64,000 nucleotides of DNA from Candidatus Pacebacteria bacterium CG2_30_36_39 (GCA_001873435.1 MNZB01000004.1:239538-303537); one strand, 5' to 3'. Positions 8,729 to 45,384 are shown, counted from the stretch's first letter. Numbers and translations: made by a program. Notes: generated from the letters alone by a model not told the origin.

Positions 8729-10435
8729 TTGACTATAATGAAGTGTTTCATGGAAAGAAATTCTTCAATACAATCAGCTCCAAACTACTCAGATAATAGT
8801 AATTTAATTAATAAAAAGTTTTCTGTTCAAAACCCTCGTTCTAATAATCATTTTTCAAAAAAAATATTTATTAGCTTAATTACTTTTTTTATTCTTTTTA
8901 TTGGTGGGGTTGCTGCTTTTTTCTTATTGCAAATTAATCAAGACATTAGACAACAAGCAAGTGATGGTGCTTATATTAATCCTGTTGTTGCTAATGCCAA
9001 CGATCCAGGAAATGCAGAATTTGGCTGGAATTATAATACGAACAAACCTGCTACAGCTGAAGATTGGACTAAAATATATGATGAAAATGGCAAAGAAATA
9101 CAAATAGCTGGAACATATATTCACTGCCAAGAAGGTAAATGTGAAAGATATGTTGTTAATTTACCGGCTACTCATAATGCTTTAAACCAATATGCTAGTT
9201 CTCACCAACAAGTTGGTGCTGAGTGTGTTAAAACTCTAGAAGGTGTTTGTGTAGCCTGGAAAGATAGACCAAAACCAACTGCTACACCAGTGCCAACAAT
9301 CAAACCCCAGCCAACTGCTGCCGCCTCGCCTACTGCTTCACCCACTGCCGCACCAATCTCTAGATGTTCTGGATTGAGTTCTACAGCATGTGGATTTGGA
9401 AGAGCTTGTGTTTATACACCCTATGGATATTACTGCCAAGATATTTCAACAATTACTACTGCCGAAGGAACCAAACAATGTGACGGAGATATAGTCATGG
9501 AATTCAAAAGTAACTCTTGGAGCAAAAAATATACTTGCATGTATGGTTGCGCCAATGGCCAATGCAATACTGCTCCAGTGGCAACAGCCACTCCAAAACT
9601 AACAGCTACTCCAATTCCAATTGATTATAGTAATTATCCTGATTGGAATGAAACATGCCATCAATCATGTCAACCTGGTCTTAAGTGTGTAAATAATAAA
9701 TGTATTGCTGATTGTCCAACTTCTCCGTCTGGAGATTGCAATAATTTTGGGTTACTTTGTGAAGACACAACAGATAGATTGATTAATAATTGGGAAGGAA
9801 ATATGTATATTTGTAATGGTGGTTCTTGGACTCAAAAAGGAGAGTTGAGAATTAATTTTGATAGTAGTTGTTCAGAAGAAGATAAAAGTGTTTATAGGGA
9901 GTCTTTTGCCCATGCTCCAGAGAACCTACTACCAAAAGAACATATTGATGTTTCCTGTGGAGATCCACCTCCAATAACAACAACCATTGATGGAGTTGAT
10001 TATGAAGGTGTGGCTTGTGGGCAGTATTCAACTGACAATTATAATTCAGATCACCTTTACCTATATTGTAATGATCCTCAGTGTCATATTCCTGAAGCTG
10101 GCTATGATTGCGATTACACGACCACTCATGAGTTAGTCCATAATCAGGCCAATGAAACTCAATGGCTTGGATCCGCAGAAGTTACTAGTTTTAATGAAGC
10201 AATTGGTTGTAAGAGTGCTGGAAAAGGAAAATTTGAGTTTTCAGAAAACCCAGTCACTACGTATGGAAGAGCTAATTGTGCTGAAGCCTATGCAGAGTTG
10301 GTTACTGTTTATTCAGAAAACCCGTGTTATATAAAGAATAGTGGCGAATATCAGAATCAACATAATTGGCTTATGACAAGCAATGATTCTCCTTACCAAG
10401 GACAAGATAATTGTCAGGAAGGAGGAAAAGGATAA
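8729..10435 (+). CDS. Cys-rich secreted/signal-anchored protein with an 'INQDIRQQA' post-TM motif, a P/T/A linker and a C-terminal HELVH motif.
   Basis: N-terminal TM helix (ISLITFFILFIGGVAAFFLLQ) followed by INQDIRQQA. Many Cys residues, the linker 'PKPTATPVPTIKPQPTAAASPTASPTAAP', and HELVH at nt 10127-10141. Confidence 0.6.
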   Translation: MTIMKCFMERNSSIQSAPNYSDNSNLINKKFSVQNPRSNNHFSKKIFISLITFFILFIGGVAAFFLLQINQDIRQQASDGAYINPVVANANDPGNAEFGWNYNTNKPATAEDWTKIYDENGKEIQIAGTYIHCQEGKCERYVVNLPATHNALNQYASSHQQVGAECVKTLEGVCVAWKDRPKPTATPVPTIKPQPTAAASPTASPTAAPISRCSGLSSTACGFGRACVYTPYGYYCQDISTITTAEGTKQCDGDIVMEFKSNSWSKKYTCMYGCANGQCNTAPVATATPKLTATPIPIDYSNYPDWNETCHQSCQPGLKCVNNKCIADCPTSPSGDCNNFGLLCEDTTDRLINNWEGNMYICNGGSWTQKGELRINFDSSCSEEDKSVYRESFAHAPENLLPKEHIDVSCGDPPPITTTIDGVDYEGVACGQYSTDNYNSDHLYLYCNDPQCHIPEAGYDCDYTTTHELVHNQANETQWLGSAEVTSFNEAIGCKSAGKGKFEFSENPVTTYGRANCAEAYAELVTVYSENPCYIKNSGEYQNQHNWLMTSNDSPYQGQDNCQEGGKG

Positions 10436-11193
10436 TGAAAATGAAAAAAGCTTGGCTGTTCTTATTATTTATAATTTTTTTAGGATTGCCTCAAAAAGCA
10501 ATTGCAAAAGATCTATTTCCTGAACTAGAAAGTCTAGAAATAGACCAGAAATTACCACAAGAAATTCAAGATCTTGGTAAAGAAACTAAAGATGATGTGC
10601 CTGAAACTATATTTTTAGAATTTGAATCAAGTTCAAAATCCTATCCACATTATATAGAAATTACTCCAATGGGAAAAATTGTTTATATGGAACTTAAAAT
10701 TCCAGATACTCATGTAGAAATTTATCAGAATATATTAACTTCACTTGGAGAACCAGAAACAAAAGAAGAAACCACGCCATCATATGTCTTGCTTGCATAT
10801 CCAAGCAAAGGAATAGGTTTTATTGTTAATGAGAGAAATAGAAATTTTCTTATGCAAACTAGATTTCCTAAGAAATCTGTTACCAATTTAAAAGCCAATG
10901 AAGCTAAAAACTTTATTCAAGTTTCTCAACTAGCCACCTTTCCCACAGGGATATTAAGTCCAATACCAACTGAACCACCAATTCCAAAAGATTTAGCTAT
11001 TATTAATGAGCAAAATCAAGGAAGAAATAATTTAATCAAATATGTTTTGTATACAATTATTGGACTAATAGTGCTTTGGGCAATTGAATTAGTAGGATCA
11101 TACTTTAAACGAAAGAAACAAGATCCACCCAAACCTAAAATACCTCCTACTCCTCCAATGCCGATAGATCCACCGATAATATTGGAACAATAA
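10435..11193 (+). CDS. Secreted protein with a Sec signal peptide and a C-terminal TM anchor plus a Pro-rich tail.
   Basis: ATG at 10435 is preceded by AGGAGG 9 nt upstream. The signal peptide is MKMKKAWLFLLFIIFLGLPQKAIA|KD. The C-terminus is 'YVLYTIIGLIVLWAIELVG...PPKPKIPPTPPMPIDPP'. The track start at 10411 is a TTG. Confidence 0.6.
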   Translation: MKMKKAWLFLLFIIFLGLPQKAIAKDLFPELESLEIDQKLPQEIQDLGKETKDDVPETIFLEFESSSKSYPHYIEITPMGKIVYMELKIPDTHVEIYQNILTSLGEPETKEETTPSYVLLAYPSKGIGFIVNERNRNFLMQTRFPKKSVTNLKANEAKNFIQVSQLATFPTGILSPIPTEPPIPKDLAIINEQNQGRNNLIKYVLYTIIGLIVLWAIELVGSYFKRKKQDPPKPKIPPTPPMPIDPPIILEQ

Positions 11194-11240
11194 AAAAATG
11201 TATTGGAAAATAGTGTTTTAGGCGCAAAAAAAGCGCTTTA

Positions 11241-11358
11241 TTCTGGCCTCGACCTATCTTCGCGTCCCAACGAGGGGATACTATTGTCGGCGCTGAGGCG
11301 TTTCAAGACTCTGTTCGGGATGGGAAGAGTTGGTTCCACCTCGCTCCGGAGACCAGAA
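11241..11358 (-). rRNA. rrf: 5S rRNA.
   Basis: The reverse complement reads '...GGUGGAACCACUCUUCCCAUCCCGAACAGAGUCUUGAAACGCCUCAGCGCCGACAAUAGUAUCCCC...'. This matches the conserved 5S loop B/C/helix III-IV consensus, and the terminal helix UCUGGUCUC/GAGGCCAGA closes it. Confidence 0.85.
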
Positions 11359-11467
11359 TAAAACGCTTTTTGTTAATTTTAGGTTATGTTCCCTAAAAGG
11401 TGAAGAGAAATTGTCATCTGCCAGTAAAAAATTGAGAATTCATTTTTAACGCATCTTTATATACTAA

Positions 11468-14378
<2,911 letters not shown>

Positions 14379-14584
14379 AATTAGCGAAATTTGCATTTTT
14401 TTATAAATTCTCGACGAATTTACTATTAGATGACATATCTCTTCACTTTTTAAAGAACAATTCTAAACAAGAAGCTTCCGCTCCTTGTTGTTCGCCCCGA
14501 GTAGTCAAGATTTCTCTCAAAAACCCATGAACGAATAACAAAAAGCCGATCTTAGTTATTCTTGTTTATGTTAATTTGCTTCTG

Positions 14585-14658
14585 TGGACCCTAAGGGGCT
14601 CGAACCCTTGGCCTCTACATTGCAAATGTAGCGCTCTAGCCAACTGAGCTAAGGGCCC
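14585..14658 (-). tRNA. tRNA-Ala (anticodon UGC), immediately upstream of the 23S rRNA.
   Basis: The reverse complement is GGGCCCTTAGCTCAGTTGGCTAGAGCGCTACATTTGCAATGTAGAGGCCAAGGGTTCGAGCCCCTTAGGGTCCA. It forms a cloverleaf, the anticodon loop is TTTGCAA, and the Ala-identity G3:U70 pair is present. Confidence 0.9.
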
Positions 14659-14846
14659 TCTTAAAGATCTTAGTTAGCCACAAAAAAAATCTTGGCCAAC
14701 TACTTTTGGTTTTATTCACTTGTAAAAATCGGGTGAGGGATTCTTCCGCTTTAAAGCGAGCAAGAATGTCTATTTGCTGTTTTCCCGAACAGAGGAGGTT
14801 ATTATAATCAGAGACCTCCTATTTTGCAATAGAGAGAAAATACTAT

Positions 14847-15482: not shown

Positions 15483-15525
15483 AGAAGCCTTTCTTCCTAA
15501 GACCTATATAGTCATGGGCAAGGGA

Positions 15526-15792: not shown

Positions 15793-15832
15793 ATCTAAAT
15801 TTCTTTTACCGATTTTAACTCTAGTTAAAATC

Positions 15833-17166: not shown

Positions 17167-17778
17167 ATGACACCAATTAGCACTCACTACTTCTCTCTTT
17201 CAAAGAGAACATTTGATTTTTCTCTAGCTATTTTCCTTGCTATCTTCTTATCTCCATTACTATTATTAATTGCTATTACTATTTTAATAAGTTCTGGTAT
17301 GCCAATCATTTTTACTCAGAAAAGAACTGGAAAAGATGGTAAAACCTTTACCATTTACAAATTTAGAACAATGAAAAAAAATGCTTCACTACTCAAGCAT
17401 AAATATCTAGAATTCAATGAAGCACCTTCTCCAATGTTTAAAATTCACAATGACCCAAGATTTGTTGGCATTGGAAAATTATTATCTCAAAGCGGTTTTG
17501 ATGAACTCCCTCAATTAGTTAACATCATTAAAGGTGAAATGAGCTTTGTTGGACCAAGACCATTGCCTGTTCAAGAAGCCGCCTCCCTTAATCAAAACTG
17601 GAAATCTTTTAGAGAACAAGTAAAACCAGGTGTTTTTTCAGAATGGACTCTTTCAAGCAATAGACATTCAACTCTAAAAAAATGGCAAGAACTAGAAGAA
17701 AAAACTCTATCGTATAGTAATTTAAAAAATGATTTAGAAGTCATGATTAAAGTCATGCTCAAACAACACAATCCCTAA
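17167..17778 (+). CDS. Initiating polyprenyl-phosphate hexose-1-phosphate transferase (bacterial sugar transferase, PglC/WbaP C-terminal type).
   Basis: One TM helix followed by 'PIIFTQKRTGKDGKTFTIYKFRTM...FDELPQLVNIIKGEMSFVGPRPL'. Confidence 0.85.
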   Translation: MTPISTHYFSLSKRTFDFSLAIFLAIFLSPLLLLIAITILISSGMPIIFTQKRTGKDGKTFTIYKFRTMKKNASLLKHKYLEFNEAPSPMFKIHNDPRFVGIGKLLSQSGFDELPQLVNIIKGEMSFVGPRPLPVQEAASLNQNWKSFREQVKPGVFSEWTLSSNRHSTLKKWQELEEKTLSYSNLKNDLEVMIKVMLKQHNP

Positions 17779-17830
17779 ATAAATTTAATCCTAAAACTTA
17801 GGATTAGCAGATGATGCTATTATTAAAATA

Positions 17831-20422
17831 GTGTCAAATATCCTTAAGTTTTTAGCTGGTTCAGCATTATTAATAATTTATTTATTATTAATCTTCTTAT
17901 TAGGTGAATCATTTCTGCAATATGTTCTTTTTGGGATGGGGGCGATCATTTGCCTTTATTTATCATTTGCTCTGGGAAATTGGTCTTCATTAATTAAATA
18001 CCCCTTAATTCTGGCTGGCTGGATATTATTTGTTTTGAGCTTGGCAATAAGCACTATTTCTACTGTGAATCTACCGCTAACTTTGAGTTATTTAGCATTT
18101 TATGGATTAAGCTATTTAACATTTATTACGATTTTGGTTTTACCTAAAAAAATAAAAAGTATTTGGGTAATTTTCACAACATTACTAGCAATTTTTATAG
18201 TTACTCTAATTAGTATCTTTTTTCAGTTATTTCCAGAAATGGCCAAATCATTACCAACAATGAACTTGATTTATTCAACTTTTGGCCATAACCATTTAGC
18301 AGCCATACTATTACTAATTATTCCCATGAGCTGGTGGTTTGCCATCAATAAAAAACACGAGCTAAGTGAAGTTTTTCCAAATATTTTTTTTCAAATTGTT
18401 CCCTTTTTTTTCTCAATAGTTTTGCTTTTTAGCTTTGGAAGAATAGCTATTTTGTTGGGTTTATTTGAGTTTTTAATTATTAAATTTTTATTAAATAAAC
18501 AAAAAGTATCTCCAACAAAAATTATTAAAAATGAACTACGCCTATTACAAATCTTATTTTTCTCAATCTTAATTATTAAAATCATCTTCTCAGTAGTTGA
18601 AATATTTAATCCTGGCTATATATGTCCTATTCAAGAAAAAGAAAAGCAATTATGTAAATCTATTTCAAATGAAAGAAGACCGCTCTACTGGGATCAAGCC
18701 TGGAAAGTAATCAAGGAATACCCGCCAATTGGTTCTGGACCAGGTACTTTTAGTGTTTCTGGAGCTAAATACAGCCAAGCCCCTCTATATAGAACATCTT
18801 TTGCTCATAACGCTTTCCTAGAAAACTACAGCACTTTGGGAATTATCGGAGGTAGCATCTTCATATTTTTAATGTTTAACATGTTATTTAAAGTAAGTCG
18901 TGCAAAAGAAATAAAAATAAATTCAAAAGAAGAATTGATTAATGGCAGTAATAGTTGGCAATTTTTCAGTTTAATTTCTTTATGTGCAATTTATGTTGAT
19001 GTTCTATTTGATTTTGATTGGAATTTTTCAGGAATCTTCATTTTAACGCTCATCTTAATTGCAACCATGCTTCGAGAAACTACTATAAATAAAGATCTAA
19101 ATTTTCTTAACAAAAGAAAGAGTGAAAAAATAGCTAAAGCAACTAAAAACATATTTGTTTTTATTAGTTTTTGTTTAATCACCCTATCTGGAACATATTT
19201 GGTTGTTGAATTTAAAATCAAACAACAAAAAACCAATGAAGCATTTGAGTTTTTCCCCTACTTCCACTGGCATCGTAAAATTTTTGAAACAGAACTATCT
19301 TCAGAAAACTACCCCAAACTCTTAAGTATTTATAAAAATTATCCAGAACACTACATATTTTTAATCAGCAAAGAAATTGATCCAAACAAAACAGCTCTCC
19401 TAAAAAAAAGACTGGGAGAACTGAGTCCTTGGGACAAAATTAAGGAAAATAACATTGAATACTATTTAAATGAAAATCAATATGACTTGGCTCAACAAGA
19501 ACTAGAAACAATTCATGAACTTTATCAAAAAAGCTTAAAAACAAGCGATGACTGGATTTTTAGCTATAGCGATATAAAAAGACTATCTCAACAGACCCTT
19601 AGATTTGCAGACAAAATATGGCTTCAAAACCCCTTATTAGCCGCTGATTTTTACACTAAAGCTCAAAAAATAGATTCATGGACTTGGCAAGAAAATAGCT
19701 TGGGTATTTTAAATGATAAATTTGACCAATATTTTCAACAAAGATTAGAATTTATGAGAAATTTTCCAAATGAAAAATATGATTATTTAGGCACTAATCG
19801 TAACACTTATGCCAAAAAATATTTATTGGCTTTAAATGAATTTTTAAAATCACAAGAAAACCCTCAAAATATTCATAATGATCTAAACAATATTTTAAAT
19901 ATGGCTAACTGGCTTTCTGTTTATGCTTGGGCTGACCTAAATGAAATTTACCAATTAAAAATAACCCAAACCTTACAAACAAACAAAATAAATGAAGTTA
20001 GTAGTTTAATTTCAGAATGGAAAAAAACCTCAGAAACAATCCAAAAATACAACAAAGATCTTTCGTGGGATTATAAACTAAAAATTAACTTAGTTAAAAA
20101 ACTGCAAAAAAAAGCTACTGAATTATTAAACAATAATAAAGCTGAAAATCTTACAGATGAAATAAGAAGCCAAGTCATGGATTTGGTTTCTTTAATGAAC
20201 CAAGTTTTACCAGAAAATTATTGGGTCATAGTACAGCCAGGAAATCTATATACCTATTTTGGCCAAATTGAGACAGCAAAAAAGGCTTTTCAATATTGTT
20301 TAGACAACTATTATGATCCAGGAAAACATGTAGATTGTGAGAATGGATTATTAAATTTAAATCAAGAAATACCAAATAAGAACCGCTATTTTGAAGTATC
20401 TAAAACCATCCTCAGCCAATAA
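17831..20422 (+). CDS. Wzy_C-family membrane protein (O-antigen ligase / O-oligosaccharyltransferase-like) with a ~450-aa C-terminal alpha-helical soluble domain.
   Basis: About 10 N-terminal TM helices. The motif '...RTSFAHNAFLENYSTLGIIGG' is the Wzy_C signature. The long K/N/E-rich C-terminus is probably TPR-like. Confidence 0.7.
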   Translation: MSNILKFLAGSALLIIYLLLIFLLGESFLQYVLFGMGAIICLYLSFALGNWSSLIKYPLILAGWILFVLSLAISTISTVNLPLTLSYLAFYGLSYLTFITILVLPKKIKSIWVIFTTLLAIFIVTLISIFFQLFPEMAKSLPTMNLIYSTFGHNHLAAILLLIIPMSWWFAINKKHELSEVFPNIFFQIVPFFFSIVLLFSFGRIAILLGLFEFLIIKFLLNKQKVSPTKIIKNELRLLQILFFSILIIKIIFSVVEIFNPGYICPIQEKEKQLCKSISNERRPLYWDQAWKVIKEYPPIGSGPGTFSVSGAKYSQAPLYRTSFAHNAFLENYSTLGIIGGSIFIFLMFNMLFKVSRAKEIKINSKEELINGSNSWQFFSLISLCAIYVDVLFDFDWNFSGIFILTLILIATMLRETTINKDLNFLNKRKSEKIAKATKNIFVFISFCLITLSGTYLVVEFKIKQQKTNEAFEFFPYFHWHRKIFETELSSENYPKLLSIYKNYPEHYIFLISKEIDPNKTALLKKRLGELSPWDKIKENNIEYYLNENQYDLAQQELETIHELYQKSLKTSDDWIFSYSDIKRLSQQTLRFADKIWLQNPLLAADFYTKAQKIDSWTWQENSLGILNDKFDQYFQQRLEFMRNFPNEKYDYLGTNRNTYAKKYLLALNEFLKSQENPQNIHNDLNNILNMANWLSVYAWADLNEIYQLKITQTLQTNKINEVSSLISEWKKTSETIQKYNKDLSWDYKLKINLVKKLQKKATELLNNNKAENLTDEIRSQVMDLVSLMNQVLPENYWVIVQPGNLYTYFGQIETAKKAFQYCLDNYYDPGKHVDCENGLLNLNQEIPNKNRYFEVSKTILSQ

Positions 20423-20486
20423 TAAATCTTAAATAATAAAAAACTATGGCTAGTGGTTATTTTTCTATGATAAGATCGAGCCTATT

Positions 20487-21464
20487 ATGAATACTAAGAA
20501 ACGAGCAAGGGTTTTAGTTGCAGGCGGTGGTGGCTTTATTGGTGGTCACTTAATTAAATATCTTAAAAAACAAGGTTATGAAAAAATCAGAGCTGTAGAC
20601 ATCAAACCACTGTCTGAGTGGCAACAGCTAGATTCTAAAGTTGAAAACATTTCCCTAGATCTTAAAGATAAAAACAACTGTATCGAAGCAGTTAAAGGAA
20701 TTGATGAAGTTTATAACCTAGCAGCTGATATGGGTGGCATTGGTTTTATCGAAAATAATAAGGCCAGTTGTATGCTGAGCGTTTTAATAAACACTCACTT
20801 ATTATTAGCAGCCAAAAATAACAAAGTTAAACGTTTTTTCTTTGCTTCATCAGCTTGTGTTTATGCTGCTGACAAACAAACAGAAACTCAAAATAAGGGC
20901 TTAAAAGAAAGCGATGCTTATCCAGCCATGGCTGAAGATGGTTACGGTTGGGAAAAGTTATTCAGTGAAAGAATGTGTCGCCACTTTGCAGAAGATTTCG
21001 GCTTAAAAACAAGAGTAGCTAGATTTCATAATGTTTATGGCCCATTCGGTGATTACAACACCGGCCGTGAAAAAGCTCCTGCTGCTTTAACTAGAAAAAT
21101 CATTGCTGCTGAAAAAACAAAGAAAAAAGAAATTGAAATTTGGGGAGATGGTGAGCAAACTAGAAGCTTTATGTATATTGATGACTGTGTAAAAGGCATC
21201 GACCTAATTATGCACAGTAATATTAAGGAGCCAGTCAACTTGGGTAGTGAAGAAATGGTTTCCATTAATCAATTGGTAGAGATATTAGAAAAAATTGCCA
21301 AAATAACTGTCAAAAGAAAGTATTTGCTTAACGCACCAAAAGGAGTTAGAGGTAGGAGTAGTGATAATACTCTGCTTAGAAAATATCTGAGTTGGGAACC
21401 ATCTATTTCTCTCAAAAGAGGTATGAGCAAACTATATCAGTGGATCAAACAAGTAGAAAAGTAA
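20487..21464 (+). CDS. GDP-mannose 3,5-epimerase (GME; NAD-dependent epimerase/dehydratase family).
   Basis: Near-identical blocks to plant and bacterial GME: 'AGGGGFIGGHL', 'YNLAADMGGIGFIENN', 'KRFFFASSACVYAADKQTETQNKGLKESDAYPA...GYGWEKL', 'RFHNVYGPFGDYNTGREKAPAA', 'EIWGDGEQTRSF.YIDDCV', 'EPVNLGSEEMVSIN', 'KGVRGRSSDN'. Confidence 0.8.
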   Translation: MNTKKRARVLVAGGGGFIGGHLIKYLKKQGYEKIRAVDIKPLSEWQQLDSKVENISLDLKDKNNCIEAVKGIDEVYNLAADMGGIGFIENNKASCMLSVLINTHLLLAAKNNKVKRFFFASSACVYAADKQTETQNKGLKESDAYPAMAEDGYGWEKLFSERMCRHFAEDFGLKTRVARFHNVYGPFGDYNTGREKAPAALTRKIIAAEKTKKKEIEIWGDGEQTRSFMYIDDCVKGIDLIMHSNIKEPVNLGSEEMVSINQLVEILEKIAKITVKRKYLLNAPKGVRGRSSDNTLLRKYLSWEPSISLKRGMSKLYQWIKQVEK

Positions 21465-21517
21465 TCTTATTGACAGACCATAACGCATAGATTAGTTTAA
21501 CATAGAGAAATATCATT

Positions 21518-21805
21518 ATGATGCATTTTATTAATCAACTTAAAAACCAATTAATGGATTTTTTTCAAAGCAAAAAAACCCTAATGAAATATTTAAAAAA
21601 AATTAACTTTTATTTTAAAAAATTTCAAACAATAGTGAACTTTCTTATTTCCTTTATAAGCTTACTATTCACTTATATTGTTGGCATTGGAATTACTAGC
21701 TTAGTTGCAAAGATAGTGGGCAAAAAATTTCTTGGCAAAAAAGCCACTGATTCTCAATGGGTAGCGGTAGATTATTCAGATAAATTTAATCAGAAAATGT
21801 CCTAA
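21518..21805 (+). CDS. Small membrane protein (hypothetical).
   Basis: 95 aa with one TM helix (IVNFLISFISLLFTYIVGIGITSLVA). Its stop is 2 nt before the carbamoyltransferase start. Confidence 0.3.
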   Translation: MMHFINQLKNQLMDFFQSKKTLMKYLKKINFYFKKFQTIVNFLISFISLLFTYIVGIGITSLVAKIVGKKFLGKKATDSQWVAVDYSDKFNQKMS

Positions 21806-21807
21806 AA

Positions 21808-23538: not shown

Positions 23539-23550
23539 AATAAAAATAAT

Positions 23551-23694
23551 ATGTTTAAAGAATTAATTAAATATTTATGGAAAAATAAATCTTGGTGGAT
23601 TATCCCACCAGTAATTATTTTAATTATCTTTGGCGCATTAGTGGTTTTTTCTCAAACATCTCCACTTAGTCCATTTATCTACGTCTTATTTTAA
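23551..23694 (+). CDS. 47-aa membrane protein of the small family that typically follows carbamoyltransferases (DUF5989-like).
   Basis: ATG at 23551, 13 nt after the carbamoyltransferase stop. The sequence is MFKELIKYLWKNKSWWIIPPVIILIIFGALVVFSQTSPLSPFIYVLF. It is too short for the ORF track. Confidence 0.55.
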   Translation: MFKELIKYLWKNKSWWIIPPVIILIIFGALVVFSQTSPLSPFIYVLF

Positions 23695-24917: not shown

Positions 24918-24992
24918 AGGCCAGATTGTACTATAATAATTAAACGATTAACAAACAGCTAATAAATATTATTTCAAGAAAAATTTAAACCA

Positions 24993-26120: not shown

Positions 26121-26125
26121 ACATA

Positions 26126-26857: not shown

Positions 26858-26862
26858 CAATT

Positions 26863-32107: not shown

Positions 32108-32112
32108 ACCTT

Positions 32113-32790
32113 TTATTTTTGTACCACTCCCAAGCCATTTGAGCCTGGAAATTCAAAAGCTGGATACTTCTTCTTAAGCTCTTGCCAAAACTTATCAACT
32201 CCATAATCCAAATCATTTTCTAAATTAGTTTGCGTATCATGGAATGAAATAAAACCACCAGTTAATAAACTTGGCCAAAAATTATTAAAATCTTCCTTTA
32301 TTCCCTTGTAAGAATGATCACCGTCCAAATAAATATAACCCCACTCTCTTTTGGGAAATTTTTTCTTAAAATCCTGAGAAGTCATCACGTTCATTCTGAT
32401 ATAAGAATCTAGACCATATTTTGCAAAGTGTTTTTTAACATTATTTTCTCGCCAAAAACCCACTCCGCCCCAATGTCTTTTTTTATCAGCTACACTATTT
32501 TGAGAATACCCAGCATCTACAAAATCCACAATTCCTTGTTGATTATCTTTGCAAGCCAAAGCACATATGGCTGGAATAAATCCATACCTACTACCAACAC
32601 AAAGAACTCTCTTTGGCTTGAGTAATCTAATTAAAGAATAATGAATCCAACCATAACCCAGATTTGCTTTATCAATATCTAATTCATGCCAATTATCACC
32701 TTTGGAAAAATGATTGATAAAGTTTTTTATCGATCGACGATTTACTAAACTTTTACTCTGAAATATTTGAGGTATGATATGGGTCAACAT
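32113..32790 (-). CDS. Class I SAM-dependent methyltransferase (TylF/CmcI-like sugar O-methyltransferase candidate).
   Basis: 'VLCVGSRYGFIPAICA' and 'IYLDGDHSYKGIKEDFNNFWPSLLTGGFISFHD'. Confidence 0.45.
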   Translation of the reverse strand: MLTHIIPQIFQSKSLVNRRSIKNFINHFSKGDNWHELDIDKANLGYGWIHYSLIRLLKPKRVLCVGSRYGFIPAICALACKDNQQGIVDFVDAGYSQNSVADKKRHWGGVGFWRENNVKKHFAKYGLDSYIRMNVMTSQDFKKKFPKREWGYIYLDGDHSYKGIKEDFNNFWPSLLTGGFISFHDTQTNLENDLDYGVDKFWQELKKKYPAFEFPGSNGLGVVQK

Positions 32791-32792
32791 TT

Positions 32793-34019
32793 ATGGTTAA
32801 GTTTATCATCAAATCTCTCCTTAATAAGGCCCATTTTTTAAACTGGAATCAAGATGATTATTTAAAATATTTCCTATCAATTTCAAACAACAAAAATAAA
32901 ATTAAAACTATTCTTGCCAAAGAAAATACCCCTATTTTTATTGGAGATACAAAAATCATTGCTCAAAGACACCATGATTTAAAAAATGCCTTAGAAAAAA
33001 ACTGGCTAAATTATCAAATTAGTTATTCTTTCAAAACAAATTACTCAATTATCGAAAATAATTATTTTAAAAATAATTTTTGGGCTGAAGTTGTCTCAGC
33101 AAAAGAATACTTATTAGCTGAAAAAAATCAATATAAAAATATCATCTTTAATGGACCACTAAAAACAGAATCTTCTTTAAAACAAGCAATTAAAAATAAT
33201 TCAATTATTAATCTTGATCATGAATCAGAAATAACAAAAGTTGCAAAACATAATAACAAGACTAAAACAAATTTTGGTTTGAGACTAAATATTATTACAG
33301 ATCAAACTACTCAAAAAAGTAGATTTGGTTTTTCAATCGAAAATAAACAAGCTGAAAAAGCACTCAAGATAGCCAAGATTAATAATGTCTCTATTTCCGG
33401 ATTACATATTCACTTGGGAACAAATATTCCAAACTGTAAAAAATATCAACAGGCAGCTAAAAAAATTAGTGATTTTATTGTCAAAAACAAACTCACAAAA
33501 CAAATAAGATATATTGATTTTGGTGGTGGTTTTGTAAGTCATGCCAATCCACCAAACGACAGATTAAACTGGAATATTCCAGATATAGAAGAATATATCC
33601 AAGCAATTACAACCACATTGAAACAAGTTTTTCACCGAGAGAAAAAACCAATTTTGTTAGTAGAGCCAGGAAGATATTTGGTTGAAGATGCCATATCTTT
33701 ATTTTCCAGAATTGAAAATAAAAAAATTGAAAATCAAACACAATTAATTACTACTGACACCAGCATTAATATGCTACCCATAACTCATTATCGAAAACAT
33801 ATTGTGCAAATTGCAAAAGAAAACCTAAATATTAAAACTGGTAAAAAAATTAAAACCATCATTTATGGTGCAACCTGCCAAGAAGATGACATTCTATTTG
33901 AGGGTTATCTGCCAAAAATTTCAGAAAGTGATTATCTAATTTGGCACGCAACAGGAGCCTACAATGATTCCATGAACAGTAATTTTATTTTTGATAAACC
34001 AAAAACAGTTTTTATTTAA
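32793..34019 (+). CDS. Fold-III PLP-dependent decarboxylase (Orn/DAP/Arg decarboxylase family 2).
   Basis: 'SYSFKTN' contains the PLP lysine. Also 'GLHIHLGTN', 'YIDFGGGF' and 'LLVEPGRYLVEDA'. Confidence 0.75.
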   Translation: MVKFIIKSLLNKAHFLNWNQDDYLKYFLSISNNKNKIKTILAKENTPIFIGDTKIIAQRHHDLKNALEKNWLNYQISYSFKTNYSIIENNYFKNNFWAEVVSAKEYLLAEKNQYKNIIFNGPLKTESSLKQAIKNNSIINLDHESEITKVAKHNNKTKTNFGLRLNIITDQTTQKSRFGFSIENKQAEKALKIAKINNVSISGLHIHLGTNIPNCKKYQQAAKKISDFIVKNKLTKQIRYIDFGGGFVSHANPPNDRLNWNIPDIEEYIQAITTTLKQVFHREKKPILLVEPGRYLVEDAISLFSRIENKKIENQTQLITTDTSINMLPITHYRKHIVQIAKENLNIKTGKKIKTIIYGATCQEDDILFEGYLPKISESDYLIWHATGAYNDSMNSNFIFDKPKTVFI

Positions 34020-34031
34020 AAAAAAATAAAT

Positions 34032-34883
34032 ATGTTAAAAAAAGTAATCAACAAATTAAAAAAAGAAACAAAGAATCTTTTAGAGAAAAAGAAACTGCCT
34101 GATTATTTTAAATCAAATCAATTGGCCTGGAATACTGTCGCTCCATTGCATCAAGCTGCCAACCATCAATCTTTATTAAAAGAAGTACAACAACAAAAAT
34201 ATTCTTGTCTTAACCAAAATCAAATAACTGCCTTAAATGAAATTGGAGTTAAAAATAAGAAAGTTTTTCAACCAGCCTGCAATAACGGAATAGAGTTAAT
34301 ATCTATTAAAAAAATGGGTGCCAAAGAATGCGTCGGCTTTGATATCGCGGAAAAATTTATATTGCAAGCTCAAGAACTGGGAAAATCCGCCAATGTTGAT
34401 TGCCAATTTGTACAAAAAAATTTCTTTGATATTTCAGATAAACTAAAAAATCACTTCGACCTAGTGTTTGTTTCAGTCGGCACTCTCCCTTGGATGCTAG
34501 ATCTAAATAAGTTCATAAAAAATTCTAATAAGCTTCTCAAAAAAAGTGGCTACATTGTTATTAATGAGATGAACCCTTTGTTACATTGCCTAAACTATGA
34601 AAGCACCATAGAAAAAATTAAAATTGATAGATCATATTTTGCTGATCAACTTGATGTTAATAATATTTCCTTAGACTATTACAAACACAGCAAATATAAG
34701 GTTCCAACTCAATACTGCAAATACCACACCTTGGCAGAAATAATAAACACTCTAATCAAAAATAAGTTTAAAATAAACTTATATAATGAATATCCAGATG
34801 ATCCTTCATTGAGTTTCCAAAAATTAACTAGATCAAATAAAAAACTACCGATGAGCTACACTATAATTGCCCAAAAAATATAA
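34032..34883 (+). CDS. Class I SAM-dependent methyltransferase.
   Basis: 'VFQPACNNGIELISIKKMGAKECVGFDIAEKF' is SAM-binding motif I. 'LVFVSVGTL' is motif II. Confidence 0.6.
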   Translation: MLKKVINKLKKETKNLLEKKKLPDYFKSNQLAWNTVAPLHQAANHQSLLKEVQQQKYSCLNQNQITALNEIGVKNKKVFQPACNNGIELISIKKMGAKECVGFDIAEKFILQAQELGKSANVDCQFVQKNFFDISDKLKNHFDLVFVSVGTLPWMLDLNKFIKNSNKLLKKSGYIVINEMNPLLHCLNYESTIEKIKIDRSYFADQLDVNNISLDYYKHSKYKVPTQYCKYHTLAEIINTLIKNKFKINLYNEYPDDPSLSFQKLTRSNKKLPMSYTIIAQKI

Positions 34884-36156
34884 AATGAGCCCATTCTCTG
34901 CCCAGAACCTACTCAAAAAAATTAATCTATACAATCTAGCTTTGCTATTAATTGGTGTTTTTACTATCTTAAAAATAGCTAATATTACTCAAAGCACTCA
35001 TTATCATAGCGATGAATACTTTTCAATTTTATTAGTTAATAGCTACAAACCAATCGACTATTTCAAATTTAATACAGACGTGGGAAACCCGCCGTTTTAT
35101 TATTTAATGCTTGATAACTATTTATCTTTTTTTCCCACAAAAAATGAATTTGTTAGTAGATCATTATCAATAATATTTTTAATTGTTAGTTTGTTTTTTG
35201 TTATAAAAATTGCCGACAATATTTTTAAATCAAAATTAAATAAATTAGCCCTATTCACTCTTTTTTCTACCTCAGGAACAGTTATTAATTACTACACTCT
35301 AGCAAGGCCATACCCTCTGTATCTAACAATATTCATTATCATTATTTTTCTATTTACCAAAAAAAGAACAAATAAAATAAATTCAATGTTTATCATTATG
35401 TTAATTTTGGGCATGTTTACTCATTATGTTTTTTTTGTTATTTCAATTTGCTTTTTAATTTATTTTATCCTACAAAAAAATCTTAAAATGACCCTAGCCA
35501 TTGGGGCAAGTTTTTTAATTAGCTTTGGATTAAATGCAAAATATGTATATTTGTCGTTATTTGATAAAAACAATCAATATGCTTTTGACCAGTTTCAAGT
35601 ACAAACAATGAGCTTATTAGAACCAATCCGCGCTGCTTGGTTTAGAGGTTTTGTTTCATACCAAATCATTGCTATTTTATTAATAATATTGTTTTTCTAT
35701 TTGCTAAAAAATATCAAACATTCAAATATTAACTCTATAAATTATTCAATAATCAACATAACTATTATTAGTTATTTGGCATTTTTTATTCCACCCTTAT
35801 CAAGAATTTTTCCATCACTTACATATAAATTATCTTTAATTTTTCTATTGCAAATAGTTCTAATAAATTTATTTGATTCATTGCCAAACTTTAAAAGTAA
35901 AAAAATAATTGTTGGTCTATATATTGTTTGGTTAATTTTTACCTCTCCTCTAAAAAGGTTTGATGTCTTTCAACCAGAGATAGACGATTTATCTATGAAA
36001 CTAGATGCCATGAAAGCAAGTCAAGAAGTTCCGTGGGTTATAACTCAAAAATGCTTTGTTAATATGGTTCCATATTTCAAATATTATTTACCCAAAAACC
36101 AATTTAAATGTTTGGATAACCAAACCACCTTAGTAACTCCAATCATTCAGCAATAA
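34867..36156 (+). CDS. Polytopic membrane protein, GT-C-fold (ArnT/PMT-like) glycosyltransferase candidate.
   Basis: 429 aa with about 10 TM helices. An early loop has 'HYHSDEYFS', a DE motif. Confidence 0.4.
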   Translation: MPKKYKMSPFSAQNLLKKINLYNLALLLIGVFTILKIANITQSTHYHSDEYFSILLVNSYKPIDYFKFNTDVGNPPFYYLMLDNYLSFFPTKNEFVSRSLSIIFLIVSLFFVIKIADNIFKSKLNKLALFTLFSTSGTVINYYTLARPYPLYLTIFIIIIFLFTKKRTNKINSMFIIMLILGMFTHYVFFVISICFLIYFILQKNLKMTLAIGASFLISFGLNAKYVYLSLFDKNNQYAFDQFQVQTMSLLEPIRAAWFRGFVSYQIIAILLIILFFYLLKNIKHSNINSINYSIINITIISYLAFFIPPLSRIFPSLTYKLSLIFLLQIVLINLFDSLPNFKSKKIIVGLYIVWLIFTSPLKRFDVFQPEIDDLSMKLDAMKASQEVPWVITQKCFVNMVPYFKYYLPKNQFKCLDNQTTLVTPIIQQ

Positions 36157-37372: not shown

Positions 37373-37377
37373 AACAA

Positions 37378-41813: not shown

Positions 41814-41835
41814 ATTATTGATTAATCTTATTTAA

Positions 41836-42561
41836 CTAACTAATATTTTTACTTTTTTTATAATTTTTAATCACCTCTTTGCCACCATCACCAAGGATTT
41901 CACCATTCTCCAACCAAATAATTCTTTCACAGGATTTGGAAATAAAATCAATCAGGTGACTTACTATTACTACCACTTTTCCTTTTTTTAAAAAAGAATC
42001 AACTCTTTTAGCGGTTTTAATCTTAAACTCTTCGTCCCCTACAGCAATCATTTCGTCTAAAAGAAAAATATCTGGATCACTATTAATTGCCACAGCAAAA
42101 CCTAATCTTAATTTCATGCCTTTGGAATAAGTAAAAAGAGGTTCATCTATAAACCTACCGATATCAGCAAAACCAATGATCTCATCCATTTTCGCGTTAA
42201 TCTCTTTCTTATTCATTCCCAAAACCATGCCATTAATCATAATATTTTCTCTACCAGATAAATCTGGGTGAAAACCAGCTTCTAGATCAATTACAGAAAC
42301 AACTTTACCAATTACTTTTAGTTCGCCGGATGTTGGTTGTGAAATATCAGAGATAATCTTAAGAATGGTTGTTTTTCCAGATCCATTTGGACCAACTATT
42401 CCCACTTTTTGTCCTTTAAAAATATCTAAATTAATTCTATTTAAAGCAACTAGTTTTTCTGGCCTAGATCTACCGATTATCTGCTCTATAAGAGTAGGAC
42501 GGTGTCCTAGTAGAACATATTCTTTAGTAATGTTTCTTAGTGAGATAACTGGTTTATTCAT
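41836..42561 (-). CDS. ABC transporter ATP-binding protein, polysaccharide/teichoic-acid exporter type (Wzt/TagH-like).
   Basis: Walker A 'GIVGPNGSGKTT', signature 'YSKGMKLRL', Walker B 'IFLLDE'. Confidence 0.85.
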   Translation of the reverse strand: MNKPVISLRNITKEYVLLGHRPTLIEQIIGRSRPEKLVALNRINLDIFKGQKVGIVGPNGSGKTTILKIISDISQPTSGELKVIGKVVSVIDLEAGFHPDLSGRENIMINGMVLGMNKKEINAKMDEIIGFADIGRFIDEPLFTYSKGMKLRLGFAVAINSDPDIFLLDEMIAVGDEEFKIKTAKRVDSFLKKGKVVVIVSHLIDFISKSCERIIWLENGEILGDGGKEVIKNYKKSKNIS

Positions 42562-42563
42562 AA

Positions 42564-43397
42564 TTAAACATAATCACTAAAATTTTTACTATCTTTATAA
42601 AAGATATAGAAACCAACTATAAAAAATAAGCTCGCCGACAATAAACTAAACATCCAGATTGGTTCTGGAGCTGAATTTGAAATAAAAAATATATTTCTCA
42701 TCATAACCACAACCAAACTCAGTGGATTTAAAAATAATACCCATCTAATAAATTCTGGGATTACGTTTTGAGAATAAATAATTGGAGTTAAATAAAATCC
42801 TAATGGCAATGAGGCTTGCATAATAAAACTAACATCTCTAAATCTGATATTAAGAGATGAAACTAATAGCCCTAAGCCACTGGTAAAAATAACTAAACAA
42901 ATTATGGCTAATAATAGAAGAAGGAGATTAATAAAAATAACATGTTGCCAAACGGCTACGAATAAATACAACAATACAAATGAAATTAATAAGTGAAACA
43001 AATTAGCAGCAACTATTGATAAAACTAATATTTCTCTAGGAAAATTTGCTTTCTGTAAAAGAAATCTTTGATGAACAAAAACTGGAGTGATCTGGTTTAA
43101 GCTTGAAGAAAAGAAATTCCAAATTAATAAACCAACAAATAAAAATAAGAAGTAGTTTTCTGTTTTTACTGGCATGAAAAACTGAAAAACGGCTCCAATA
43201 ACAAACATTTGTAGTATTGGATTAATAATCATCCAGGCAAAACCCAAGCCAGCATTCTTATATCTAGCCTTTATTTCTTTCTCTGTCATCGTCCATAGAA
43301 AATCCAACCAATATTGTTGTTTATCATTTAGTTTAAATAGTTTTGATTCACTAAATACCATATCGAGACTTAATTTTAACAGAATATTGGACAACAA
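42564..43397 (-). CDS. ABC-2-type permease (Wzm/TagG-like).
   Basis: 277 aa with 6 TM helices. It is directly upstream of, and stop-start coupled to, the ATPase. Confidence 0.7.
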   Translation of the reverse strand: MLSNILLKLSLDMVFSESKLFKLNDKQQYWLDFLWTMTEKEIKARYKNAGLGFAWMIINPILQMFVIGAVFQFFMPVKTENYFLFLFVGLLIWNFFSSSLNQITPVFVHQRFLLQKANFPREILVLSIVAANLFHLLISFVLLYLFVAVWQHVIFINLLLLLLAIICLVIFTSGLGLLVSSLNIRFRDVSFIMQASLPLGFYLTPIIYSQNVIPEFIRWVLFLNPLSLVVVMMRNIFFISNSAPEPIWMFSLLSASLFFIVGFYIFYKDSKNFSDYV

Positions 43398-43469
43398 ATA
43401 TGTTATTTATATCACCAATATAATTATGCTAGACTATACTCACTTTTATTATCTCAATATGATCGACCT

Positions 43470-44159
43470 ATGATAAATATCATTGATTCAGCCAATATCA
43501 CCAATAATAGCCAAGAAGGCTCTAAAGACAATCCTCCTCAAATTAAGCTCCCTGATGCCACTGGTGTTGCTTCAGCTCAATTTCAAAAAAAGTTTTCTGA
43601 AAAACCACAGAGAAAAGGCTTATCCAAATATTTAATTGCCGGAATTCTCTTGTTACTTTTGGCCATCGGAGGCGGAGCAAGTCTTTATTTAATGAGTATT
43701 AATCAAGACCTTAGACAACAAGCTGATCAAGGAGATTACACTAATCCAACTGATCCACCAGAAGAGCCTACAACTGCCCCGACCACTGCCCCAACTACTG
43801 AACCTACTGGCGAACCAACTACCGAACCTACAACTGAACCCACTGGTGAACCAACTACCGAACCTACGGGCGAACCAACGGATGGGCCAACTGGTGAACC
43901 TACCACTGAACCCACTGGTGAACCTACAACTGAACCAACCACAGATCCTGGAAACGGTGGTGGTGGAAGTAGCAGTTCTTCAAGTTCATCATCAAGTAGT
44001 ACGGCTGTTGTAAATATCAATAATGGAAGCACCACAATAAGAGTTCAACCAACTCTGCCTCCTCAATTGCCACAAACTGGACCAGAAGATTGGCTAAAAT
44101 ATTTACAAGTAGGCTTGGGAGCCTTAGGAGTTGGAGCCTTATTCCTACTCTTCTTATAA
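43470..44159 (+). CDS. Surface protein with an N-terminal TM + INQDLRQQA motif, a TEPTGEP tandem repeat, a poly-Ser run and a C-terminal LPQTG + hydrophobic tail.
   Basis: '...LYLMSINQDLRQQAD', (PTTEPTGE)n, 'GGGGSSSSSSSSSSSS', 'LPQTGPEDWLKYLQVGLGALGVGALFLLFL*'. Confidence 0.65.
   Translation: MINIIDSANITNNSQEGSKDNPPQIKLPDATGVASAQFQKKFSEKPQRKGLSKYLIAGILLLLLAIGGGASLYLMSINQDLRQQADQGDYTNPTDPPEEPTTAPTTAPTTEPTGEPTTEPTTEPTGEPTTEPTGEPTDGPTGEPTTEPTGEPTTEPTTDPGNGGGGSSSSSSSSSSSTAVVNINNGSTTIRVQPTLPPQLPQTGPEDWLKYLQVGLGALGVGALFLLFL
43765..43940 (+). repeat. In-frame imperfect tandem repeat (~24-nt unit) encoding the (P-T-T/G-E-P-T) linker.
   Basis: 'gaacctactggcgaaccaactaccgaacctacaactgaacccactggtgaaccaactaccgaacctacgggcgaacc...' recurs. 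Confidence 0.7.
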
Positions 44160-44180
44160 AACAATTAGAAATAAATTTAA

Positions 44181-44208
44181 AAGCCTAGCCAAAAGCTAGG
44201 CTTTTTTA
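44181..44208 (+). terminator. Intrinsic terminator after the 43470 gene.
   Basis: 9-bp stem AAGCCTAGC-caaaa-GCTAGGCTT followed by TTTTTT. Confidence 0.8.
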
Positions 44209-44295
44209 ATATTTTAACAATTAAAACCAAACTTTCACCGAAAAAACAAATAATCTCTCATTGACCAGCAAATAACAAAGGCTGTATTCTAGATA

Positions 44296-45384
44296 GTGAC
44301 TAGATTAACTAGTTACAGTTCTATGGATTTTAATCAACCAAATATTAGCAAAATCCAAGATAGACCAGAAGAAAATAAAAGTGACTCTGGTTTAATTTTT
44401 CGTCCAAAAAAACCAAACAACTCAAAGATATTTTTTGGTCTAATCTCCCTCTTCGTTTTGGCAGTTGGAGGTCTAGTTGGAACATACCTAATTGGCATTA
44501 ATCAAGACCTTAGACAACAAGCCGACTCTGGCACTTATGTTAATGGCCAATGTGAGCCAAATTACTGGTCAGTTAATGGCCAATGCGTTTTGGAAAACTG
44601 TGATGACTATGATAATGACGGAATTATTGTTTGTGGTGTTGGTCATGGAATTTGTACTGAAGATAGTCTTGGTGGAGATTGGTGTGACAATCCAAACACC
44701 ACCGATCATGTTGAAACATGCGGAGAAACAGGACAAATTCGCTGCCAATGTGGACCGGGAAGTGACCAAGGATATTGGGTAATTGGCTCTGGAACAGGTA
44801 GTTGTGACGATCTCTGTGAAGACGCCAATGTTATTTGTACTGACTGTCCACCAGAAGAGCCTCCAGAAATTACCAATCCTCCAGAAGAACCAACTGCAAC
44901 TCCTCCTATTACTATATATACTCCTACACCAACTCCTACTGTTAATCCTAGTATAACTATAACCCCTACCCCAACCACTCCTCCAGGCGTAACTCTGACT
45001 CCCACACCTACAACTCCAATTGGACCACAATGTCGCAATATTGAGATGTACAACACAACAGGAGGAACAAGTACAATAATGGAAGAAAATGACGACGCTG
45101 CTTTAGTGCCTAATCAAAGCTCTGTTAGATTCGTCTGTAGTAATTTTCAAGAGAATAATTTACCAACTGGTTACTTCTATGCCTTTAGAATCTTTGAGCC
45201 TTGCGGTAGTGAAAACCATGAGACTCCTCTAGAGTTTGTAAATGCAGAAGGAGAAAATGGCATTAGTTACAACATTGAACTCAGTGGAGACTATATGGCC
45301 CAATGCTCAGTTTGTACTGTTGATGATGCAGGAGATACTGTTTGTGACTGGGAAAGCTTAACACCACAAGAATGTGGAAACTAA
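44296..45384 (+). CDS. Cys-rich secreted/signal-anchored protein with the same INQDLRQQA post-TM motif and a P/T-rich linker.
   Basis: '...TYLIGINQDLRQQADSGTYVNGQCEPNYW...', many Cys, 'TPTPTPTVNPSITITPTPTTPPGVTLTPTPTTP'. Confidence 0.6.
   Translation: MTRLTSYSSMDFNQPNISKIQDRPEENKSDSGLIFRPKKPNNSKIFFGLISLFVLAVGGLVGTYLIGINQDLRQQADSGTYVNGQCEPNYWSVNGQCVLENCDDYDNDGIIVCGVGHGICTEDSLGGDWCDNPNTTDHVETCGETGQIRCQCGPGSDQGYWVIGSGTGSCDDLCEDANVICTDCPPEEPPEITNPPEEPTATPPITIYTPTPTPTVNPSITITPTPTTPPGVTLTPTPTTPIGPQCRNIEMYNTTGGTSTIMEENDDAALVPNQSSVRFVCSNFQENNLPTGYFYAFRIFEPCGSENHETPLEFVNAEGENGISYNIELSGDYMAQCSVCTVDDAGDTVCDWESLTPQECGN

Follow-up and report, generated by a model that had tools for sequence, protein, structure and literature searches.

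A conserved N-terminal leader on predicted surface proteins of Patescibacteria, encoded in one genome by a near-identical 26-nucleotide repeat

Among described sorting systems, the C-terminal domains paired with sortase (LPXTG), exosortase (PEP-CTERM), rhombosortase (GlyGly-CTERM) and myxosortase (MYXO-CTERM) combine a motif at the outer membrane face with a helix and a cytoplasmic basic cluster, and occur on many unrelated passengers, in several copies per genome, within one lineage. At the other end of the protein, the KxYKxGKxW leader marks the serine-rich-repeat adhesins of the accessory Sec (SecA2/SecY2) system, and the YSIRK/G-S motif is embedded in the N-terminal export signal that some wall-anchored proteins carry, where it is thought to steer where or how these are secreted, not whether. 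Here, we describe an N-terminal module that resembles the C-terminal domains as a mirror image, found in a 64,000-nucleotide stretch of Candidatus Pacebacteria bacterium CG2_30_36_39 (GCA_001873435.1 MNZB01000004.1:239538-303537; G+C 33.6%), which we refer to in its full length as the window. Three genes of the window encode the peptide I-N-Q-D-L/I-R-Q-Q-A in a near-identical 26-nucleotide (nt) repeat, directly after an N-terminal hydrophobic helix. Its strong conservation marks the peptide module as a leader of surface proteins in Patescibacteria, and it is one that we found nowhere described. Pacebacteria are placed by NCBI taxonomy in the phylum Minisyncoccota (Patescibacteria, or candidate phyla radiation, CPR), a huge and mostly uncultured group whose cultivated members live attached to other microbes; to our knowledge, the surface proteins of Patescibacteria are almost entirely unannotated.

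Exact copies of the 26-mer ATTAATCAAGACCTTAGACAACAAGC stand at 43698-43723 and 44497-44522; a third copy, at 8933-8958, has a single mismatch (C to A), and all three are on the plus strand. The 26-mer was not matched, even at three mismatches, in 100 dinucleotide-preserving shuffles. Each copy lies inside a long open reading frame (ORF) and encodes the peptide in frame, and in all three genes a 21-residue hydrophobic helix, with Lys/Arg before it, ends 2-3 residues ahead of the motif. The positions, and the placement directly after the helix, were thus correctly given by the original prediction, which had been made from the sequence of the window. We term the leader with this motif class 1; its features in the window are:

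43470-44159, plus strand: P1, an ORF for a 229-residue Pro/Thr-repeat predicted surface protein (Pfam PT repeat; TIGR01167) with a class-1 leader and a C-terminal LPQTG
43470-43478, plus strand: M-I-N start of P1 (which begins MINII), the conserved extreme N-terminus of the leader family, from translation
43632-43694, plus strand: membrane helix of the P1 leader, LIAGILLLLLAIGGGASLYLM, with basic residues ahead of it, from translation and family profile
43698-43724, plus strand: class-1 motif of P1, I-N-Q-D-L-R-Q-Q-A, which includes the 26-mer
44067-44156, plus strand: C-terminal LPQTG sorting signal of P1 with its hydrophobic tail, LPQTGPEDWLKYLQVGLGALGVGALFLLFL, and no basic tail
44296-45384, plus strand: P2, an ORF for a Cys-rich predicted surface protein of 353/362 residues with a class-1 leader, modelled with AlphaFold2 (AF2)
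44428-44490, plus strand: membrane helix of the P2 leader, from translation; the AF2 helix spans helix and motif
44497-44523, plus strand: class-1 motif of P2, I-N-Q-D-L-R-Q-Q-A, which includes the 26-mer
8750-10435, plus strand: the third gene, for a Cys-rich protein with a class-1 leader (gene call of 561 residues; mechanical ORF start at 8729)
8864-8926, plus strand: membrane helix of the third gene's leader, from translation
8933-8959, plus strand: class-1 motif of the third gene, I-N-Q-D-I-R-Q-Q-A, the 26-mer with one change

All three genes had been described as Cys-rich, which holds for P2 and the third gene; P1 has no cysteine at all. Genes identical to those of the window are recorded in a groundwater metagenome contig of 274 kb and in the NCBI assembly GCA_002772855.1, where P2 is named a hypothetical protein of Candidatus Pacebacteria bacterium; in the public record, P2 starts at 44323 (MDFNQ...). 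A strain variant of P1 from another sample (L128, positions 951-999, equivalent to about 43690-43740 of the window) has CAT (His) in place of GCT at the invariant Ala codon of the motif, accounting for two of the five mismatches within 3.2 kb; a real variant and an assembly error are both possible.

To trace the leader beyond the window, we aligned its three copies there into a 46-column profile and ran an exhaustive HMMER search with it against 1.84 billion cluster representatives (50% identity clusters). This search returned 206 proteins at E<=1e-3, every one matched near its N-terminus, with the product of the third gene as the top match (P0022). A word-indexed protein search with the same 46-residue, three-sequence alignment gave nothing usable (2 candidates). 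The motif took the form x-[NS]-Q-[DE]-[VLI]-R-Q-Q-A in 143 of 148 newly listed proteins and that of a close variant in the other five, and its R, Q, Q and A were 97-100% conserved among the profile-search matches. All 21 full-length P2 homologues carry it, and a scan of metagenome contigs confirmed at least 51 loci, with motif genes often standing in runs of two or three. The ten cluster names that were looked up were "hypothetical protein" or unnamed, without taxonomy. Pfam and NCBIfam, searched with the four window proteins (P1, P2, the third gene's product and P3, described below) and 114 family members, hold no model that covers the leader; a PDB sequence profile search with the leader gave insignificant membrane-helix matches only; and literature searches covering QDIRQQA-type motifs, Patescibacteria sorting signals and related subjects turned up no account of it. 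The original prediction had not recognised the motif as a known sorting signal either.

We also scanned one genome per GTDB species with a degenerate DNA pattern for N-Q-D-[LIMF]-[RS]-Q-Q-A and translated each match in frame. At least 118 stretches matched, at least 32 of which, outside the window, sit directly after a strongly hydrophobic segment, at no fewer than 25 loci in at least 22 species-level genomes; the remaining listed matches (about 86) lack a segment of this kind, and their frames are in many cases interrupted by stop codons. Confinement of the motif to the three window genes would have refuted the original prediction; it was found instead in at least 22 species genomes and 206 clusters with unrelated passengers. 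About half of the 25 listed GTDB loci are titled Patescibacteria, Pacebacteria or Paceibacterota, and the rest "uncultured Pseudomonadales" (L024, L032, L034, L046, L050, L059, L061, L070, L077, L084, L087, L089, L117 and L013). The metagenome-assembled genomes with the latter title have a low G+C content, and in several of them the gene order is that of the window and the proteins are 35-83% identical to its own. We take the "Pseudomonadales" titles as wrong because of this synteny and homology with a Pacebacteria window. The leader is accordingly restricted, as far as sampled, to a Pacebacteria-like clade of the Patescibacteria.

These copies allowed us to separate constraint on the peptide from constraint on the nucleotides. 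Over 35 motif copies, all synonymous positions vary (AAT/AAC, CAA/CAG, GAT/GAC, five Leu codons and five Arg codons). When paralogues within a genome were compared, codon pairs for the same residue were identical 66 times in six other genomes, against 66.7 expected from codon usage, and 269 times in 13 other genome groups, against 235 expected, which is slightly above chance. Since the peptide is conserved while synonymous sites vary, and paralogue codon identity is near expectation, the comparison indicates selection at the level of the peptide and not of the DNA. The original prediction had suggested a synonymous-site check across paralogues, which thus gave no sign of nucleotide-level constraint. 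It had also entertained a nucleotide-level element such as an RNA or a recombination site; we considered a functional element of this sort, a regulatory site included, inside the coding sequence. The exact 26-nt identity in the window would suit such an element, which we nevertheless consider the least probable of all explanations: in addition to the variable third positions, Rfam has no match at the 26-mer sites at gathering thresholds, and the motif always keeps one frame, one strand and one position relative to the helix. No nucleotide conservation was seen beyond the coding constraint, which also sets the 26-mer apart from repetitive extragenic palindromic (REP)-like, recombination and RNA repeats.

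The window itself stands out in its codons. The eight motif codons are the same in the three copies except for the Leu/Ile change; of 25 same-residue codon pairs, 22 agree, where codon usage predicts 14.2. ATT, AAT, CAA and AGA are the commonest codons for their residues, and the excess is due to GAC (19% usage) three times and CTT (15%) twice; full codon identity among the window copies has P ~5e-4 under independent codon choice, a post hoc figure. Such identity is compatible with a short conversion tract and with chance alike. These numbers speak for the repeat being a mere residue of recent duplication or short-tract gene conversion among the three paralogues, without function. We regard that as very improbable, since the peptide is kept with different codons in at least 22 species and 206 clusters, which refutes duplication or conversion as the sole explanation. 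In addition, one copy lies 35 kb off in an unrelated protein, and the conserved flanking residues of the window genes already differ synonymously: the Gly-Gly of the helix is encoded by GGT GGG, GGA GGC and GGA GGT, and the conserved Tyr after the motif by TAT, TAC and TAT. Gene conversion, which had been offered as one possible origin, may add to the codon identity here and could explain that at most; it cannot account for the family-wide conservation. The codons flanking the 26-mer differ between copies at synonymous and non-synonymous sites alike, in line with the earlier description of diverged flanks around retained motif codons, but that description stopped short of the peptide likeness, which reaches past the nine residues to the G-G of the helix and, after the motif, to A-x-x-G-x-Y-x-N. 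The near-identity of the 26 nt is a local oddity of this genome, and its nucleotide aspect a local curiosity; the finding is more general than could be seen from the window.

Aligned on the motif, the family profile reads K-K-K-x3-K-x-[IL]-[LI]-G-G-x2-L-L-L-L-x-[VI]-G-[GAS]-x-[AVS]-[GA]-[LF]-[YF]-L, continued by [TS]-Q-x-[NS]-Q-D-[VLI]-R-Q-Q-A-[SAD]-x-G-x-Y. The helix has about 21 residues and a conserved G-[GAS]-x-x-[GA] face; across the family, position -12 is Gly in 84-99%, position -5 is Leu in 78-98%, and position -8 is a small residue in about 77-93%. The corresponding values for the GTDB set, picked by the motif only and not by the helix, are 84%, 78% and 77%. With a median motif position of 75, the stretch ahead of the helix is about 45 residues long (from about 5 to 230). 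This linker is rich in Pro, Ser and Thr, contains 0.0% Cys and is followed by a Lys cluster next to the helix; beyond the motif, the median Cys content is 7.2%, and 82% of the proteins exceed 4%. The extreme N-terminus is conserved as well: 41 of 147 family representatives start with MIN (25 with MINA), and 59 with M-[IALV]-N. The leader would thus run from an often M-I-N start through a Cys-free linker in the cytoplasm, a Lys/Arg cluster and the helix to the motif at the outer membrane face.

Of the known systems, the KxYKxGKxW leader comes nearest in its architecture: it is likewise a long N-terminal leader of surface adhesins (many of them LPXTG proteins) with a conserved extreme N-terminus, an extended N-region and glycines in the hydrophobic core, and in which the adjoining preprotein segment matters for routing. 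In GspB of Streptococcus gordonii, the substitutions G75L/G79A/G80C re-route export to the general Sec pathway (PMC5578698), and the roles of the adjacent preprotein segment and of the glycines in GspB routing are the subject of references 19 and 26 of that paper. The two leaders differ in that there is no sequence likeness and no TIGR03715 or Pfam match; the N-termini here read M-I-N-[AVT]..., the strongest motif follows the helix, and the passengers are Cys-rich, not Ser-rich. No SecA2, SecY2 or Asp component is among the Pfam gene lists of the window; a genome-wide search was not made. Similarly, the YSIRK/G-S motif differs in preceding the hydrophobic core, within the N-region, and in belonging to another clade (staphylococci and streptococci); its models PF04650 and TIGR01168 matched neither the four window proteins (E<=1) nor the 114 family members (E<=1e-3). 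The C-terminal sorting domains differ in their position, whereas the present leader is N-terminal and would double as an export signal, no cognate transpeptidase or protease emerged from the neighbouring genes, and some members carry LPXTG as well; the LPXTG model matches of the window proteins concern their C-termini, and the N-terminal class-1 motif is not an LPXTG. A type IV prepilin leader does not fit, with no N_methyl match and with the class-1 motif following the helix, whereas the prepilin G↓F-T-L-[IL]-E precedes it. Nor does a lipoprotein signal peptide, whose lipobox L-x-x-C ends the hydrophobic core, since no Cys lies in or near the helix. Two further candidates were rejected on general grounds: a thioester TQXA-like motif, as P1 has no Cys, and a rhomboid-type site, as the P4 position is Arg and the orientation is wrong.

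The reading we favour, and to which we give about an even chance, is that the 26-mer codes for the most conserved part of a lineage-specific N-terminal export or sorting leader that would act by cleavage or extraction. The dedicated N-terminal sorting or processing signal of the original prediction is thereby kept as the best reading, supported by conservation after the helix across genomes and clusters, with its mechanistic part inferred. Because the basic cluster precedes the helix, and because the chain is Cys-free before and Cys-rich after it, the module would insert with the N-terminus inside and the C-terminus outside. This orientation would bring the motif to the outer face, where motifs of the sortase type sit at the opposite end of the protein. 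There, a membrane-associated machine may use it to recognise these proteins and free them from their N-terminal anchor. Release could come about through an atypical or dedicated peptidase that cuts the chain at the invariant Ala or close to it, or through ATP-driven extraction by a MacA/MacB-type ATP-binding cassette (ABC) system encoded downstream (see below), by analogy with LolCDE and MacAB. The freed ectodomain would end up on the cell surface, linked to the wall via LPXTG in about one-fifth of the cases. In known biology, LPXTG proteins have cleaved signal peptides; as about one-fifth of the family are of this type too, one would expect them to be released from the N-terminal helix.

A simpler account would be an ordinary Sec signal peptide with a cleavage region that is stereotyped in this clade, cut after the Ala by the housekeeping signal peptidase I. 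The parts come in the right order, with a basic cluster, then a hydrophobic core and then a polar stretch up to the Ala; some members have short N-regions like those of signal peptides (MSTLLYRKKK..., MKKSYVV...), and LPXTG proteins require a cleavable signal. Still, we think this account unlikely. In place of a short basic N-region, there is one of about 45 residues (median) with its own conserved start. In place of small, uncharged residues at -3 and -1, Ala occupies -1 in 100%, Gln -3 in 93-97% and Arg -4 in 100% of the proteins, and the latter two residues speak against cleavage by an ordinary signal peptidase I. The would-be c-region also contains Asp, spans about 11 residues from the helix end to the Ala, and is followed by conservation up to +5 (G at +3, Y at +5). 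Moreover, the gene at 10411-11193 of the same window has a canonical signal peptide, MKMKKAWLFLLFIIFLGLPQKAIA followed by KD (ending AIA↓K), together with a C-terminal membrane helix, so that canonical and motif-type N-termini coexist in this organism; the class-1 leader is, by its sequence, distinct from this canonical peptide. A second stereotyped leader class at the same loci likewise speaks against a plain Sec signal.

This second class is represented in the window by P3, directly downstream of P2:

45388-46374, plus strand: P3, a 328-residue Cys-rich LPKTG protein with a class-2 leader
45592-45630, plus strand: post-helix class-2 motif of P3, V-T-A-P-N-A-P-G-S-Q-P-A-A, in place of QDxRQQA (coordinates counted from the translation)

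P3 had been described as a fourth paralogue that lacks the motif. QDxRQQA is indeed absent, but a homologous helix and another conserved motif are present. The class-2 segment of P3 reads VTAPNAPGSQPAA, and the class-2 pattern consists of a helix end ...G-V-L-I-[SA]-Q-[KR]-Q, 3-9 residues, and then [VI]-[AS]-P-[NT]-A-P-x-S-[KRQ]-P-x-A. We noted about 18 separate cases at other loci, all in LPXTG proteins without QDxRQQA (L144, L139, L147, L156, L167, L134, L145 and others); they often begin M-x-N...QPQA[FT]YTK, and the gene usually lies just upstream of a MacA/MacB-like cluster. The clade therefore has at least two leader classes side by side, and such coexistence of stereotyped classes is to be expected if they are sorting or processing signals, but not if the motif arose by chance.

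As an alternative to release, the leader may be a permanent type II membrane anchor. The helix and QDxRQQA would then never be removed, and the small-residue face and the polar turn would mediate helix packing; we rate this as a possibility with clearly less than an even chance. By homo-oligomerisation or by docking to a shared scaffold, such packing may keep the Cys-rich ectodomains at the membrane surface. The helix of about 21 residues, with its Gly at -12 and small residue at -8, offers GxxxG-like packing, and the cytoplasmic N-regions, which can reach about 250 residues and have a conserved start of their own, look more like mature protein than like a disposable signal. The unfavourable Gln at -3 for signal peptidase I points the same way. 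An AF2 model of P2, for which 18 sequences were aligned, also joins helix and motif in one continuous helix (residues 34-67), which runs from the membrane part through the motif. That this helix stops exactly at the invariant Ala would, on the other hand, suit release; the model is confident in the membrane part, but the predicted local distance difference test (pLDDT) score is below 50 in the motif. Conversely, the roughly 20% of proteins with an LPXTG-type signal would be tethered at both ends, and an invariant small residue (Ala) with conservation on either side is typical of a processing site.

A candidate for the machine that a release mechanism would call for was found in the gene neighbourhood. 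Downstream of P1, P2 and P3, the window encodes an ABC system of the MacA/MacB type:

46564-47610, plus strand: MacA/YknX-like membrane-fusion adaptor, first gene of the ABC system (PF25989 YknX_C; TIGR01730 RND_mfp at 105.9 bits, above cut-off)
47626-48318, plus strand: ABC ATPase of the MacB/LolD/FtsE type, from family scans
48293-49516, plus strand: MacB-type permease (MacB_PCD and FtsX), from family scans
49565-49906, plus strand: small membrane protein of 113 residues after the permease, with no family match

We compiled the neighbourhoods of the 51 metagenome loci, the GTDB loci and the window, which formed 46-47 non-redundant groups. The most recurrent neighbours of motif genes were the adaptor, the ATPase and the permease, as downstream of the window genes: the adaptor recurs in 15 locus groups, the permease in 13 and homologues of the small membrane protein in 12. 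A MacA/MacB-like cluster lies on the same strand, 0.2-7 kb downstream, in 15 of the 24 groups with at least 5 kb of downstream sequence. At those loci, the adaptor is 44-68% identical to that of the window, and the motif proteins come from many similarity clusters. Members of the MacB superfamily include LolCDE, which extracts lipoproteins, and MacAB-TolC, which exports heat-stable enterotoxin II; the known members use cytoplasmic ATP to move substrates already on the outer membrane face. The likeness to these systems lies in the adaptor, ATPase and MacB_PCD/FtsX permease encoded downstream of motif genes in many loci. The differences are that the link is one of gene neighbourhood only, incomplete and in part shared synteny, and that the substrates would be anchored by a helix and not by a lipid. 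The MacA/MacB-type system is thus a candidate partner of the leader. Going further, these proteins could belong to an unrecognised N-terminal sorting system, in which at least two leader classes mark Cys-rich adhesins and a dedicated machine, with the MacA/MacB-type system as the leading candidate, detaches them for surface display in contact with a host. The ABC system would then act as LolCDE does, on a helix in place of a lipid. We put this forward as a speculative proposal that is probably not correct in full.

Several observations weigh against a released leader with a dedicated machine. The mechanism is deduced from sequence throughout, and the Gln at -3 violates the rule of signal peptidase I for a small, neutral residue there. 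Together with a helix that is long for a cleavable signal peptide, this Gln makes a permanent anchor plausible. The association with MacB is partial, with the cluster present in only two of the five GTDB loci with enough flank, and the third gene (8750-10435) lies 36 kb from the MacA/MacB-like cluster of the window. The association is also inflated, as the metagenome loci were confirmed against the leader of P2, which itself stands at such a cluster, and as the genomes are related. The restriction to the clade holds among the matches listed and assumes, as we do, that the "Pseudomonadales" titles are mislabelled. Finally, the co-occurring protease that the original prediction had looked to did not emerge: a crude regular-expression search of 1590 neighbouring ORFs found no recurrent signature of a sortase, signal peptidase I, prepilin peptidase or site-2 protease, and the gene lists of the window hold no sortase, signal peptidase or other peptidase signature.

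The passengers vary widely. Leader-bearing proteins range from 87 to 6618 residues, and the 114 family members examined have almost no Pfam or NCBIfam domains in common; a few carry PT repeats, DUF11, cohesin, dockerin or PKD domains. The module is thus fused to unrelated passenger domains, mostly Cys-rich ones. An LPXTG-like signal ends 30 of 147 proteins (about 20%). In the window, the C-termini of P1 and P3 pass TIGR01167 with 16.7 and 16.6 bits (cut-off 15.9), but end in ...LLLFL without a basic tail. These LPXTG C-termini (44067-44156 and 46282-46371) are themselves stereotyped, as LP[QKE][TS]GPEDW[LI]xYLQ[VI]GLGALG[VI]GALLLLFL. For the last 120 residues of P2, AF2 predicts a beta-sandwich with confidence, for which Foldseek returned weak, generic FN3/Ig-like matches only (E>=0.028) against the PDB; the predicted fold is compatible with a surface protein, and no more. 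Large Cys-rich extracellular proteins, clustered in the genome and with a proposed role in attachment, have been described in Peribacteria, also members of the CPR (PMC4736985). They resemble the class-1 passengers in being Cys-rich (about 7%) and extracellular, and differ in that PMC4736985 notes signal peptides generally, with no conserved leader motif, and in their lineage, the Peregrinibacteria.

The leader provides a sequence handle with which a class of Patescibacteria surface proteins can be listed, comprising at least 206 clusters and some proteins of more than 6000 residues, and it could become a curated model for genome annotation. It points to a specific processing or export step and to a candidate machine; if it is a true sorting tag, it would be an N-terminal counterpart of sortase- and exosortase-type signals. 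Even as a mere anchor, it would mark a large family of attachment-type proteins in these organisms.

Further features of the window were noted around these genes. A Wzm/Wzt (TagGH-like) ABC exporter lies directly upstream of P1, P2 and P3 on the opposite strand and adjoins motif genes in eight locus groups; together with a large cluster of glycosyltransferase and Wzy-type polysaccharide genes, it covers 17167-36156 and 41836-43397 of the window. A tRNA gene (46450-46522, plus strand) stands between P3 and the adaptor gene and is overlapped by the mechanical ORF start at 46489. Another tRNA gene (14585-14658, minus strand) lies upstream of the 23S gene; complete 23S and 5S rRNA genes occupy 11241-14382 (minus strand), with no 16S gene in the 64-kb window. 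A VirB4/TrwB-like ATPase (DUF87) is encoded at 52655-54991, and five T4SS_pilin genes follow in a run just past the window end on the same contig (L125, 17912-20088).

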